Source: Fidelibacterota bacterium (GTDB lineage Bacteria > Fidelibacterota > Fidelibacteria > Fidelibacterales > DSDE01). Taken from it: DNA of 64,000 nt. Shown here one piece after another: positions 13,481 through 25,637 of the stretch. Position numbers and translations under genes: made by a program. Positions within the stretch are counted from its first letter, which is position 1. The number at the start of each line of letters is the position of its first letter. The DNA lies in assembly GCA_046735395.1 (NCBI GenBank), contig JBJKQR010000062.1:4800-68799 (forward strand), written 5' to 3'. The notes beneath the pieces are model-generated. The model had not been told where the DNA came from. It was given only the letters and a program-made list of their open reading frames with translations, and searched no databases.

Positions 13481-14242
13481 CTATCCGTCCTCCCCGAAAA
13501 GGGATATCTGGGTCACAGGCGTATCGGGCTCGTCCGGCACTGCGTTATACAGTTTTCCGTCCAGCAGACGTCCGTTCTCATGTTTTTCCCGCCAGATGCC
13601 GTCGGGCCCCCGGCTTCCCCACTGCCGGAAAGTGAATGCGATGCCGTCCCGTTCACAGAGATCCCGGATATTCAGCACCCAATCCTTTTTCATCCTCCGG
13701 GCTTTCGGGCCGCTTTCGCCGCCGACCAGAACCCAGTGAATCCCGGTCAGATCCGGAGTTCCTATATCCTCCAGCAGCGGTTCCACCGACAGGAAGCGGA
13801 CAGTCGCCGCCACCTGACGAAGCTCATCAATGCGCGGCAGTCCATGGCGGATATTCTCGACAGTAACGCCCAGCCAGAGATTCCTCGGAATCTCCCGGGT
13901 TTTGAAATAGTCCTTCATTCGGGATGCACGTTTGGTCAGCATCTGGAACAGGTGCCGGGGCGTACGCCGGATAACATCCAGAATTTCATCTAAAAAGGCA
14001 TCGGGCATGGCCTCATGAAATACATCGCTCATGGATGACACAAAATACCAGGTCGGGCTTTTCCGTTTCAGCGGAAGCTGCAGGCGATCCGGATGCAGGG
14101 AGAATTCAAACCCATTTTCGTAGCCCGGGGCGCCCATTTTCTTCAGCCTGAGCGCAAAGCCTTCAGCATAACAGTTCCGGCAGCCTTCGGAAATTTTGCT
14201 GCATCCGGTCACCGGGTTCCAGGATTCAAATTTTCGCTGCAT
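13481..14242 (-). CDS. DUF5131 / phage Gp37-Gp68 family protein
   Basis: 253 aa. N-terminal three-Cys cluster WNPVTGCSKISEGCRNCYAE, then FVSSMSDVFHE, WLGVTVEN, FLSVEPLLEDI and WVLVGGESGPKARRM. This layout is typical of PF07505 as I recall it. Confidence 0.8.
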   Translation of the reverse strand: MQRKFESWNPVTGCSKISEGCRNCYAEGFALRLKKMGAPGYENGFEFSLHPDRLQLPLKRKSPTWYFVSSMSDVFHEAMPDAFLDEILDVIRRTPRHLFQMLTKRASRMKDYFKTREIPRNLWLGVTVENIRHGLPRIDELRQVAATVRFLSVEPLLEDIGTPDLTGIHWVLVGGESGPKARRMKKDWVLNIRDLCERDGIAFTFRQWGSRGPDGIWREKHENGRLLDGKLYNAVPDEPDTPVTQISLFGEDG

Positions 14243-14289
14243 GGTTCAGGTCACCGGATTTGCGATAAACACGACAAAGTCAGAAATTT

Positions 14290-14859
14290 CTATTCCATCG
14301 CCTTGCGGATATAACGTTTTATATACTCAAAATGATTCCCCACTTCCGTATCCAGATTCGGTGTGGGATCGAAGAGATCCAGATTCAGAATGAATTTCAC
14401 CTTCTGATCGGGGCCGATGATATACAGATCCCTCTGAACAGCATGCCAGGCGATGGCCTGATTCACACCCGGCGCAGGATTCAGCACGGGCAGCGTCATC
14501 CCTTCACGGTCAAAGGGAGCATTGCGGTAGGGATGCACTTCAATATCGATCATGTTCACATTCCGGAAAGCTTCATCCTTCCCGAGAAGCGTATGAATTT
14601 CGTTGAGAGCGCCGAACCGGCGCAGACACTTGCCTCAACCAAGCGATCCGAAATAGACCAGCAGGACCTGGCCCTTATATTGTTCCAGGGTCAGCGTATC
14701 GCCGAAGCTCCCGGAATTCTTGTTGATATTTTTCATTGCAAACGTGGGCAGCGCCGACTTGCGCAGTTCCGGATTAATCATTTTCTGGAAATGGTCAAAA
14801 GCCGGAAGTGCCGACACCAGCATCAGCAGGACGAGTCCCATTTTTCGGATTCGAGTCAT
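14290..14859 (-). CDS. Predicted selenoprotein: secreted thioredoxin-fold (TlpA/AhpC-TSA-like) thiol-disulfide oxidoreductase with a U-G-K-C redox motif. The TGA at 14637-14635 is read as selenocysteine.
   Basis: Track ORFs 14635..14859 and 14290..14559 share one frame (start-to-start offset 300 nt). My read-through is ...EQYKGQVLLVYFGSLG[TGA]GKCLRRFGALNEIHTLLGKDEAFRNVNMIDIEV... with no other stop. The TGA occupies the first-Cys position of the CxxC motif after the beta1 strand. There is a signal peptide (MGLVLLMLVSALPAF), an AGGAG Shine-Dalgarno about 9 nt upstream of the ATG at 14859, and a SECIS-like hairpin downstream. Confidence 0.75.
14602..14639 (-). promoter_or_regulatory. Candidate bacterial SECIS element
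   Basis: mRNA: GUUGAG-GCAAGUGUCU-GCGCCG-GUU-CGGCGC-U-CUCAAC. The lower 6-bp stem (14639-14634 with 14607-14602) contains the UGA. The upper stem is an all-GC 6-bp helix (14623-14618 with 14614-14609) and starts 11 nt after the UGA. The apical loop is G/U-only. Confidence 0.6.
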
Positions 14860-23666: not shown

Positions 23667-23816
23667 ATTAACAGAATTCCCGGGTCAAAACCATGTTTTT
23701 TCTCCCCTGCCACCTAAGGGATCCGGACTCCAAGTGCCTGACTGCAAATCATTTTCGACCGTAAAAACGGTATATGATTTTCGAAATTTTCTCCGCTGCA
23801 AAATACCGGAAAAGGG

Positions 23817-25637
23817 TCAGTCGCGGATGTTGCGTCCGATCTTCATGACCCGCGGTAAATCCACGAAGATGTCGGGGTAATCTCCGGTAATATTGATGGG
23901 CCCCGTATTGAGCGTATTATTGGCGACTTTACCCAGCCAGAATGCGCCTTCGTGATATACATTCGGCCCGCGATAGGACATGGTATCCCGAACAAACAGG
24001 CCGCCGTAGAGCGTGGACTCAAGAACCGCGTTCCCCGAATAGGCCAGAACATTACTGTAGACCGTCGAGTTGTCCAGAATACGGATATCCCCTTCCGTGG
24101 ACCAGATCAGGGCCACCGTCTTTTCATTCGGAGCCCGATAGTCCACCCCGAACTGGCTGTTGCTGACCGTTACGTCACCCCTGGCCAGAATGACCACATT
24201 CGCTCCGATGGTGGAATTTGTGATCTTCACAAAACTGTTTGAAACAATGATCCCCGGCGTATCGTACTCTTCCGACAGCACTGTGGCGCCATTGAAAATG
24301 ATGCTGTCCTTGACGAAGATGGTGCTATTGTCAAAATTAGACAGGTTGAGCGTCTTGGGCGAGGTGAAGACCAGAAATTTATTCCCGCTGTAGCTGCTAA
24401 TCCCCGCGGCCACTGAATTCAGCAGATTAATCGTATCCTCAATCGTCGGATAATTGATTTTCAGGACCGGGTATTCAAAACCGGCGGCCCAGTTCGAATA
24501 TCCGTACACCGTATCCGCTGCAGTCACCCAGATTCGCGTGGAAGCGCCGGGAGCCTGGCCGATATTGGCGGAATTCACCACATACACACTGTCACGGACA
24601 AAGAAATTTCCATTGATAACCTGATTCTCCTCGATCATGAGCAGACCGGGTTCGCCGGCAAAGGTAATCAGCAGACGCGGCGGAATAGGCCGGGAGAATT
24701 GCGAATAATAATGAACGAGTGGTGACGGGTCTCTGAGGAGCCAGCCGTAATAGGGAATATTTCCGTCCAGGGCATCACGGATATTCTGCGTCACATCCCA
24801 GCTTATCCAGCCCCCGGCCAGGACATTGGTCACAGATATGGGATCGGGGTCAAAATCTCCCCCGCTCTGATTCCAGGCACTGGTGGCCGTCTTATTCACC
24901 CAGGTGGCTTCCCGGTCAATCCAGGCGCTGGTTACCCGGTAAATTCCGATATTCTGCGTTTTCGGCGGAAAAGTGGGAACCTTGTTATAATAGAATATTG
25001 CAGTATCCACTCCGCTGCGGAACTGTACCCGCGACAGGTCGAAATGAATGAGGGCCCGGGATTCGCCAAAGGCGGAATTTCTCCAGCCCACATAACGATA
25101 GGGATCGGACCAGAAATTGGTCGTGCTTCGCTGAGACGAGATAAAGGTCTCATTATAATAGGGATAGGACATCCAGATCGTATCAATGACCACCGGAGAG
25201 CGAAGCGCTCTGTCCACCAGAGATGTATCCGGAAAAAAACTGTACTGAACCAGCTGAAGCCCCACATTCAGTTTCTTTCTGAATTCTCCCACTCGTCCCG
25301 TGGATGTGATACTGAAATTATTCGCGCCCTGATAGGCGCTTTTCAGTTCGATACTGCCGTCTCCGAATGACAGCAGCGTATCCTTCGGTTCGTTGACGGC
25401 TATCCAGTGAACCATCCAGTCAATGCCGGAAAGAGCCAGATAATAGGCTTTCATATGCAGCAGTGATGACGCCGAATTTTCATTTTCCCGGATATTGGTT
25501 CCGGCCAGAAAAAAGCCCATCACGCCGGCCAGGAGAACGAGCACGATCGCTGAGGTCACCAGTGCATATCCACGCTGCGCCCAGACGATTTCCTCAGGCT
25601 GTTTTTCCGTGGTCAATGTGGGTACAGGAACTCCCAT
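23817..25637 (-). CDS. PilX-N-like (type IV minor-pilin-type N-terminus) protein with a DNRLRE-like accessory domain and a probable beta-helix
   Basis: 606 aa. The N-terminus ...WAQRGYALVTSAIVLVLLAGVMGFFLAGTNIRENENSASSLLHMKAYYLALSGIDW resembles the PilX_N consensus (QRG-a-LV, hydrophobic helix, ...A.Y.AEaG). The middle has ALIHFDLSRV..., IGIYRVTSAWIDREATWVNKT, WISWDVTQNIRDALDG and YYGWLLRD. The C-terminal half has repetitive N/S/V/G-rich beta-strand-like segments. Confidence 0.65.
   Translation of the reverse strand: MGVPVPTLTTEKQPEEIVWAQRGYALVTSAIVLVLLAGVMGFFLAGTNIRENENSASSLLHMKAYYLALSGIDWMVHWIAVNEPKDTLLSFGDGSIELKSAYQGANNFSITSTGRVGEFRKKLNVGLQLVQYSFFPDTSLVDRALRSPVVIDTIWMSYPYYNETFISSQRSTTNFWSDPYRYVGWRNSAFGESRALIHFDLSRVQFRSGVDTAIFYYNKVPTFPPKTQNIGIYRVTSAWIDREATWVNKTATSAWNQSGGDFDPDPISVTNVLAGGWISWDVTQNIRDALDGNIPYYGWLLRDPSPLVHYYSQFSRPIPPRLLITFAGEPGLLMIEENQVINGNFFVRDSVYVVNSANIGQAPGASTRIWVTAADTVYGYSNWAAGFEYPVLKINYPTIEDTINLLNSVAAGISSYSGNKFLVFTSPKTLNLSNFDNSTIFVKDSIIFNGATVLSEEYDTPGIIVSNSFVKITNSTIGANVVILARGDVTVSNSQFGVDYRAPNEKTVALIWSTEGDIRILDNSTVYSNVLAYSGNAVLESTLYGGLFVRDTMSYRGPNVYHEGAFWLGKVANNTLNTGPINITGDYPDIFVDLPRVMKIGRNIRD

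Follow-up and report, generated by a model that had tools for sequence, protein, structure and literature searches.

The tips of type IV filaments and the cargo of the type IX secretion system (T9SS) have both been studied intensively, but separately. T9SS is common in lineages of Ignavibacteria, Neomarinimicrobiota and Calditrichota, and the type A C-terminal sorting domain (CTD) of its cargo is normally cleaved on export. At the tip of type IV filaments, the beta-sheet of the K minor pilin has been described as being completed by a C-terminal strand, which is supplied in trans by PilC/PilY1, as is predicted also for MshQ, and in cis in those K pilins that have large insertions, such as GspK, ComGG, CpaL and Thermus ComZ (2026 study, PMC13533445). 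In this paper, we analyse a locus in a 64-kb stretch of a Fidelibacterota contig (JBJKQR010000062.1; hereafter the window, which denotes the whole stretch and whose coordinates are used throughout), in which the gene of a 606-amino-acid (aa) protein, read here as a K-class tip minor pilin, lies next to the genes of a giant LamG-repeat protein with a T9SS type A CTD and of a lipoprotein. Together with its relatives, the locus joins a T9SS giant and a lipoprotein to a set of I-, J- and K-type minor pilins.

An earlier note on this DNA had proposed that five co-directional genes, i.e. these three and those of a redoxin and a DUF5131 protein, form a self-contained surface-adhesin module with its own redox chaperone. 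All five genes are reproduced by the list of open reading frames (ORFs) and their translations, and the whole string lies on the minus strand. From a comparison of gene content among related loci, however, the conserved unit appears to comprise three genes (the 606-aa protein, the giant and the lipoprotein) and not five. The genes and their junctions are as follows.

25637-23817, minus strand: gene of the 606-aa protein (ORF list and translation), a putative K-class (PilX/GspK/ComZ/CpaL-like) minor-pilin-like tip protein by its motif, its AlphaFold2 (AF2) model and the K position of its relatives
23666-15780, minus strand: gene of the giant, longest ORF, opened by the TTG at 23666
15780..23648, minus strand: likely extent of the giant gene, 2,622 aa from the ATG at 23648
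15780..15783, minus strand: ATGA stop/start overlap of giant and lipoprotein, read from the sequence, with the same junction in the related locus L087
15783-14872, minus strand: gene of the FN3+TPR lipoprotein, 303 aa, by lipobox, domain matches and the orthologue in L001/L087
14859-14290, minus strand: gene of the redoxin, 189 codons with a single in-frame TGA at 14637-14635, an exported thioredoxin-fold protein and candidate selenoprotein by the in-frame UGA in a U-G-K-C motif
14242-13481, minus strand: DUF5131 gene, 253 aa, the last of the co-directional genes

Only two homologues of the 606-aa protein, with 49% and 39% identity, were detectable by word-indexed search among 5.8 billion clusters, and both adjoin an orthologue of the giant that lies on the opposite strand and is divergently transcribed. 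One of the two loci is represented twice, as L001 and as L087, which is from the same organism in another sample, is 99.97% identical in nucleotide (nt) sequence and extends further downstream; the other is L002, whose contig ends inside the giant. The giant orthologue has 2,663 aa and 50% identity in L087, and 41% identity in L002, while the lipoprotein has a full-length orthologue of 42% identity in L001/L087. Outside the module, L002 shares synteny with the window, and the flanks of L001/L087 are unrelated. The link that the earlier note saw between a pilin-type gene, a T9SS-type LamG giant and a lipoprotein therefore holds in three lineages and two genomic contexts, despite an inversion; this persistence makes it likely that the three proteins are functionally linked.

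The K-like gene of L087 is divergent from a string of giant, lipoprotein, prepilin and prepilin, which is followed by a nitroreductase gene and signalling genes, and the junctions of the operon (giant-lipoprotein-I-J) are overlapping or ~11 nt. The first of these prepilins can be aligned over its whole length with the I/V-position gene (E 3e-6). The second passes the cutoff of TIGR02532 and has homologues at the J position in other clusters (E 4.5e-14). The point of the earlier note that two normally separate export routes are co-encoded is thereby strengthened, since the giant and the lipoprotein share a tight operon with two bona fide prepilins. The redoxin and DUF5131 genes, on the other hand, are absent from L001/L087, the sole other organism with contigs that reach past the lipoprotein, and prepilins are found in their place. 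The proposed five-gene order is thus not conserved among the relatives, and the same absence of the redoxin tells against a dedicated redox chaperone as a conserved feature. The ATGA overlap of giant and lipoprotein at 15783-15780 is real and is kept in L087 as AAATGAAAG; it would couple the two genes translationally, and the lipoprotein is a conserved partner of the giant. The K pilin gene is co-directional with the giant in the window, and divergent from it in both L001/L087 and L002. Because it is inverted in both related organisms, the 606-aa gene is not an obligate member of the operon.

The orientation of the 606-aa gene in the window is opposite to that in L001, L002 and L087. An imperfect 21-nt inverted repeat (76%) brackets the gene at 23659-23679 and 25666-25686, and similar pairs are common in the same scan. 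An invertible switch was considered and set aside, as such repeats are common and breakpoints could not be placed in the relatives, whose intergenic sequences have diverged too far; the difference in orientation is left as an evolutionary inversion.

The 788-aa protein gene immediately upstream of the module (25812-28178, minus strand) was used as a synteny anchor. It encodes a fusion-like protein with a NagB-type (glucosamine-6-phosphate deaminase-like) part and weak similarity to PIG-L deacetylases, and is highly conserved (57-77% identity) in Ignavibacteria, Neomarinimicrobiota, Calditrichota and KSB1. The anchor search returned 80 loci in species-representative genomes, with the best in Ignavibacteria/Melioribacteraceae (at most 67% identity), followed by Neomarinimicrobiota, Calditrichota and KSB1. 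This places the window in a lineage of the Fibrobacterota-Chlorobiota-Bacteroidota (FCB) group that lacks a near relative among the representatives. Homologues of the 606-aa protein, of the lipoprotein, of the redoxin and of the DUF5131 protein are missing from all 80 loci, and only the CTD of the giant has matches there. By this distribution, the module is an accessory, lineage-restricted insertion.

The 606-aa protein has a prepilin-like N-terminus, with a leader of 22 residues and without Glu5. Five homologues all have R22-G23-Y24-A25 unchanged, with ~20 hydrophobic residues behind it, and the motif A..LA.SG[IV][DE][YW] after the helix is conserved across the family; the leader of the homologue P0002 has 8 residues. 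A short leader ending in Gly and a hydrophobic helix of ~20 residues, with Glu5 dispensable, are the marks of a K-class N-terminus, and the family bears them. The protein contains no Cys. The AF2 model was built on an alignment of 16 sequences and has a mean predicted local distance difference test (pLDDT) of 75.7; an earlier run with 3 sequences (pLDDT 38) was discarded. The model divides the protein into three parts.

25245..25583, minus strand: pilin alpha1 helix and antiparallel beta-sheet (residues 19-131), from the AF2 secondary structure
24690..25151, minus strand: DNRLRE/CBM96-like beta-sandwich (residues 163-316), from hidden Markov model (HMM) and Foldseek matches
23820..24644, minus strand: predicted beta-solenoid (residues ~332-583) and extreme C-terminal strand (~596-600), from the AF2 model

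In the predicted structure, a helix of 63 residues (19-81) is followed by a four-stranded sheet (87-131), the beta-sandwich, the beta-solenoid, with pLDDT above 90 over residues 440-570, and a terminal strand (596-600). The long alpha1 helix packed on an antiparallel beta-sheet is the arrangement of a pilin, although a Foldseek search with the model gave no match to a small pilin. The sandwich domain matches the DNRLRE family NF033679 of NCBIfam with 70.9 bits (cutoff 34) and CBM96 of Pfam with 26.4 bits (cutoff 26). By Foldseek it resembles a chondroitin-sulfate-binding carbohydrate-binding module (CBM; 8wab, TM score 0.65-0.67) and the alginate-binding CBM96 7vbo (TM score 0.59), and on this modelled fold it likely binds polysaccharide. 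The beta-solenoid domain is common to P0043, P0084, P0120, P0140 and P0146, and the C-terminal segment is conserved across the family; the C-terminal strand would complete the pilin sheet in cis. The pilin-like nature of the protein, which the earlier note had asserted, is hence backed by the N-terminal motif, the family and its gene context at the K position, the structure model and the fold comparison, and not by pilin HMMs.

The gene contexts of more distant relatives bear on the same point. An exhaustive profile search found few full-length relatives (P0006 and P0008), along with further proteins that combine an N-terminus of the 606-aa type with either the DNRLRE domain or the C-terminal domain. 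No relatives were found when species-representative genomes were scanned with the alignment of the 606-aa protein, and a metagenome scan with the P0006/P0008 alignment gave no match. Five further minor-pilin clusters of the H-I-J-K type have a relative at the K position. P0006 and P0008 are each encoded by the fourth gene, after those of GspH/ComGD-like, PilV-like and ComGF-like prepilins (L083-L086), and P0006 shows a marginal match to PilX_N (E=0.038, 14.4 bits against a cutoff of 25.5). P0043 comes after a T2SSF gene and a run of six small genes, and in five of the latter a prepilin-type G-F-[TS]-L-x-E N-terminus is encoded; P0085 is flanked by pilins on one side and by PilM, PilO and a secretin on the other; and P0140 lies downstream of GspH-like and PilV-like genes. 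Such a K-position or machinery context is seen for relatives in L083-L086, L142-L144 and L145, and partly in L087, where I and J are adjacent.

P0006 and P0008 are the only two members with a public name, which is merely "DNRLRE domain-containing protein". The L083-L086 loci (GCA_021735525.1, GCA_021734585.1 and GCA_021734045.1) are from metagenome-assembled genomes of Candidatus Marinimicrobia/Neomarinimicrobiota, and their annotation misses the K-position pilin nature of the protein. In L145/L146 (1-7710), an intimin/invasin-type giant with Big_1 domains (at least 1,143 aa) and a 238-aa protein of unknown type are encoded directly upstream of the GspH-like, PilV-like and P0140 genes; here, too, a giant adhesin gene adjoins a minor-pilin cluster, but the locus was rejected as a further example of T9SS cargo among pilin genes, since its giant is of the intimin type and lacks a CTD.

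The most probable start codon of the giant is the ATG at 23648, which is preceded by GAAGGCAGG, an AGG-rich site, rather than the TTG at 23666. The ORF reported in the earlier note is real, and its upstream gap of 150 nt becomes 168 nt with this start. A Sec signal peptide can be read from the sequence (MTKPAAKFIGKTSLRSIFILVFLIGIGLVYA followed by Q, with cleavage after ...VYA), and those of the orthologues end in ...LYA and ...LGA, likewise before Q. Eight Laminin_G_3 modules (502 bits) are followed by an unannotated region of ~600 aa and the sorting domain.

15789..16034, minus strand: T9SS type A C-terminal sorting domain with NPF...GIYF...K motifs, matched by TIGR04183 and PF18962

Both models score above their cutoffs (40.2 bits against 23 for TIGR04183 and 31.8 against 27 for PF18962), and the domain is kept in the L087 orthologue (34.6 bits). 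The CTD segment alone matches cargo genes at 35 loci of the Ignavibacteria/Calditrichota type, with 32-43% identity to the CTDs of other cargo in related lineages. Of the domains that the earlier note had named for HMM searches, Laminin_G_3 and the T9SS CTD were confirmed here, DNRLRE in the 606-aa protein and DUF5131 in the last gene, but PilX_N was not. Of the 41 Cys residues of the giant, 39 fall within the LamG region, where each module has an FDEC...C pair and the linkers contain CxxC/CxxxC, in agreement with the described concentration in inter-module linkers. Its label as MshQ-like holds for the LamG content only: no MshQ- or PilY1-named family is among its Pfam and NCBIfam matches at E<=0.01, and its last ~80 residues are a T9SS CTD instead of the free C-terminal strand of an MshQ/PilY1-type protein. 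Since this C-terminus is a cleavable T9SS CTD, the giant could not donate a terminal strand as predicted for MshQ. The C-terminal 694 aa had no informative match among PDB sequences. A fimbrial label, TafC, was rejected, as that match scores 192 against 410 bits and covers the LamG repeats only; TafC is a subunit of a haloarchaeal Tat fimbria (PMC11821415). In L001 (6039-6102, compared with L087 1968-9959), the giant is split into ORFs of 1,201 and 1,441 aa and is intact in L087, the split being a frameshift variant or an assembly artefact.

The 303-aa lipoprotein consists of a lipobox (LLG/C), an N-terminal FN3-like domain and a C-terminal chaperone-type module of three TPRs. The FN3-like domain gives a sub-threshold match to Pur_ac_phosph_N, the C-terminal half matches MamA and SPAG1 in the PDB by TPR profile, and a SycD/LcrH-type TPR match in the orthologue is sub-threshold. 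Word-indexed homologue searches with the lipoprotein and the redoxin returned the query itself or nothing.

The remaining two genes differ from this trio in their conservation. The redoxin carries a signal peptide and a UxxC motif, and matches the NCBIfam family of TUGYCR (seleno)proteins (NF053656) with E 5e-19 and 68.6 bits, below the family cutoff of 100, over residues 38-166 and across U75. Its AhpC-TSA match is sub-threshold, and its PDB alignments are to Sco-, Trx- and GPx-like proteins, in which the U is aligned with the first Cys in the CxxxC of Sco-type proteins. The in-frame UGA is thus aligned with a catalytic Cys, and the ORF is conserved on both sides, as expected of a selenoprotein. 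A hairpin resembling a selenocysteine insertion sequence (SECIS) lies at the UGA.

14602..14639, minus strand: UGA (14637-14635) with SECIS-like hairpin, fold of -19.2 kcal/mol

The geometry of this hairpin is suitable for a SECIS, with the UGA in the lower stem, 6 bp of GC in the upper stem and the apical loop at ~19-23 nt downstream; it has no Rfam match, and its stability is no better than that of shuffled sequences (z = -0.47). No tRNA genes occur in the window, and selA, selB, selD and tRNA-Sec are absent from its annotated proteins and genes. The use of selenocysteine by the redoxin is, on this sequence evidence, supported but not proven. No close or full-length homologues of the redoxin were found by word-indexed search. 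It is very probably co-transcribed with the lipoprotein, because the gap of 12 nt between them contains a Shine-Dalgarno site (TAGGAG, overlapping the lipoprotein stop) as described; given this co-transcription and the patterned, Cys-rich giant, a local helper role is plausible, and the redoxin may assist disulfide chemistry at this locus. From its distribution, it seems to be a lineage-specific passenger and not a conserved component. The DUF5131 protein (PF07505, phage Gp37/Gp68-type) is identified with 309.5 bits against a cutoff of 28.9, covering profile positions 9-243 of 243, and the 47-nt gap that separates its gene from the redoxin gene is also real. A 22-nt direct repeat is found just 3' of the DUF5131 stop (13393-13414 and 13441-13462, 95% identical, 48 nt apart), with these two copies only in the window; it may be left over from whatever brought the redoxin and DUF5131 genes here, or may serve as a regulatory site.

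With respect to the boundaries of the gene string, the earlier note had seen no terminator until after the last gene. In the consensus scan, no convincing terminator was found after the last gene either. At the other end, consensus matches are found 5' of the 606-aa gene.

25646..25797, minus strand: region 5' of the 606-aa gene, with two terminator-like hairpins (25797-25766 and 25742-25716, after the 788-aa gene) and a sigma70-like promoter (25674-25646), all as consensus matches

The two terminator-like hairpins and the promoter-like site indicate that the gene string begins there. The remainder of the window is of a housekeeping nature, and encodes LysRS, a release factor, LolCE-like permeases, FeoB, PurN/PurH, MreB, TyrRS, GroEL, fumarase, 2-oxoacid:ferredoxin oxidoreductase, ExbB and an S41 (C-terminal processing-type) peptidase. 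At 56400-60311 on the plus strand, a 1,303-aa protein with He_PIG/Big_9 Ig-like domains is probably a large surface protein, and at 11703-12980 on the plus strand, a 425-aa protein with a short Peptidase_C1_2 match only is encoded convergently with the end of the DUF5131 gene and has no homologue in L001, L002 or L087.

We consider the chance to be about even that the locus specifies two linked adhesion devices, namely a CBM-bearing tip pilin and a T9SS-displayed LamG adhesin with a chaperone-like lipoprotein. The 606-aa protein would be the K-class tip minor pilin of a type IV filament, with the CBM96-like domain and the beta-solenoid placed between the pilin sheet and the C-terminal strand as in ComZ and CpaL; it would complete its own sheet in cis, would itself carry the adhesin, and would cap a pilus built with I and J minor pilins, which are adjacent in L087 and would be elsewhere or missing in the genome of the window. 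The giant would be exported by Sec, probably disulfide-bonded in the periplasm, judging from its Cys pattern, and passed through the outer membrane by T9SS via its type A CTD for display on the cell surface, with the FN3+TPR lipoprotein as its presumed dedicated periplasmic partner, either a chaperone or a tether. Pilin and adhesin would be linked by one programme of adhesion or substrate capture, and not by the giant riding the pilus tip, and in the window the candidate selenocysteine redoxin and DUF5131 would have come to lie where L087 has its I/J prepilins. Whereas the domain content, the conserved linkage, the inversion, the K-position contexts and the CTD have been demonstrated, the pilus-tip location, the cis completion of the sheet, the T9SS dependence in this organism, the role of the lipoprotein and the common function are inferred. 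Several observations weigh against this reading. PilX_N (PF14341) and TIGR02532 match neither the full 606-aa protein nor its N-terminal 147 or 60 residues, even with a threshold of E<=10, and the earlier note had itself named such a failure as refuting its proposal, which for the window protein is formally the outcome. The sole full-length PDB alignment to the model by Foldseek, ComZ 6qvi, is weak (E 0.02, prob 0.54). The 64-kb window contains no T9SS and no type IV pilus machinery, so that both export routes are deduced, and no other prepilins were found in it by a strict motif, a loose motif or tblastn with 12 pilins. The trio is known from three lineages only, two of them from one sample and all metagenomic. 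Finally, the giant-I/J pilin operon of L087 fits a physical association as well as co-regulation.

Such a physical association would make the giant a non-pilin tip adhesin of the PilY1/MshQ type that docks on the K/I/J complex, possibly via the lipoprotein or an internal segment, with its CTD either unused for T9SS or serving to deliver it to the surface for capture by the pilus tip. The arrangement of L087, with K beside giant-lipoprotein-I-J, indeed resembles pilVWXY1 and mshDOPQ, which encode a protein of >1,000 aa with an I-J-K core (PMC13533445), MshQ is likewise reported as a large protein of that position, and the K pilin and the giant are adjacent in all three lineages. However, the known partner inserts its extreme C-terminal strand, whereas the giant ends in a normally cleaved T9SS CTD; the K pilin has its own conserved C-terminal strand in a layout of the ComZ/CpaL type; and distant members of the family sit in clusters without a giant partner. 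We thus regard this account as unlikely, and find it improbable that the T9SS giant and the TPR lipoprotein are physically coupled to a tip complex of the CBM-bearing K pilin and the I/J pilins. If that were true, one secretion system would load an adhesin that another machine extends and retracts, and the L087 operon, with K alongside, is the genetic look to be expected of such a hybrid organelle. It is also quite unlikely that the 606-aa protein has ceased to be a pilus subunit and that its uncleaved helix anchors the CBM and solenoid in the inner membrane, as an accessory for export or attachment of the giant. The missing pilin HMM match and Glu5, the longer 22-residue leader, the lack of prepilin and type IV pilus genes in 64 kb, and the persistence of the gene with the giant in the window, where the I/J pilins are gone, would all suit such an anchor, but relatives whose genes belong to bona fide pilus clusters have kept both R-G-Y-A and the C-terminal segment, L087 keeps the I and J prepilins alongside, and the absence of pilins covers only 64 kb of a 167-kb contig.

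The proposal of five interdependent genes, in which the redoxin forms disulfides in the Cys-rich linkers of the giant, now appears very improbable. We know of no link of DUF5131 to secretion, no homologue of the redoxin or DUF5131 occurs at any related locus, and the giant of L087 is equally Cys-rich, yet accompanied by prepilins instead of these two genes; furthermore, the redoxin lacks detectable full-length homologues with which co-occurrence could be compared. These facts have to be set against the co-directional genes with small gaps, notably the 12 nt, with a Shine-Dalgarno site, that separate the lipoprotein and redoxin genes, the regular linker/module pattern of the 39 Cys residues, the signal peptide and UxxC of the redoxin, and a precedent in TfcP, a co-encoded periplasmic factor that acts on the tip adhesin PilY1 (PMC8833165). 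Still less credible is an adjacency without functional meaning, through chance clustering of surface-protein genes or their joint regulation in an accessory island. In favour of such an account, the module is an accessory one of restricted distribution, the orientation of its genes varies and two of the five are clearly swappable; but the trio has been retained, at protein identities of 39-50%, in two contexts that are unrelated and despite an inversion, the overlap of giant and lipoprotein is conserved to the nucleotide, and the pilins of L087 share the operon of the giant.

If the linkage between the K-class tip pilin and the T9SS-displayed giant is functional, it would suggest that pili and T9SS adhesins are employed in a coordinated or even physically coupled way when the cells attach to substrates of a polysaccharide or particulate nature. 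The analysis defines a family of putative K-position tip pilins that bear a CBM96-like domain and a beta-solenoid, and offers a concrete case on which the cis/trans model of strand addition at the tip can be tested. It also holds a lesson for annotation, in that two of the five genes of a presumed operon appear to be lineage-specific passengers.

In comparison with known systems, the redoxin shares the thioredoxin fold and U-G-x-C with the TUGYCR family (NF053656), although its motif is LG-U-G-K-C-L and not T-U-G-Y-C-R. The giant has the same Gln after the cleavage site, the LamG_3 repeats and the type A CTD of the T9SS cargo adhesins of Bacteroidota and other members of the FCB group, and differs from them in being coupled to an FN3+TPR lipoprotein and linked to minor-pilin genes; a literature search found neither feature described for T9SS cargo, and T9SS cargo inside a minor-pilin cluster appears to be undescribed. 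As in mshDOPQ and pilVWXY1, a protein of >1,000 aa is encoded in L087 with I-, J- and K-type minor pilins, but the giant has a Sec signal and, at the very C-terminus from which PilY1 and MshQ would donate their strand, a T9SS CTD; the genes also differ in order and orientation from those clusters and vary in both among the lineages, and a cognate lipoprotein is inserted. With PilX, GspK and MshP, the 606-aa family shares the short leader, the Gly, the hydrophobic helix without Glu5 and the 'A..A.aG' motif, and relatives of the 606-aa protein are likewise encoded by the last gene of H-I-J-K clusters; the 606-aa protein itself escapes the PilX_N model and is much larger, owing to its CBM and solenoid. 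The closest architecture is that of ComZ of Thermus thermophilus (6qvi) and of CpaL/TadG of the Caulobacter Tad pili, which have the same pilin helix and sheet, a large insertion (a beta-solenoid in ComZ and an adhesin region of ~470 aa in the ~600-aa CpaL) and a terminal strand, and which, at ~500-600 aa, are of similar size to the 606-aa protein. These two have no detectable sequence similarity to it, and the structural match is the weak one given above; unlike them, the 606-aa protein adds a CBM96/DNRLRE domain and is linked to a T9SS giant instead of a competence or Tad system.

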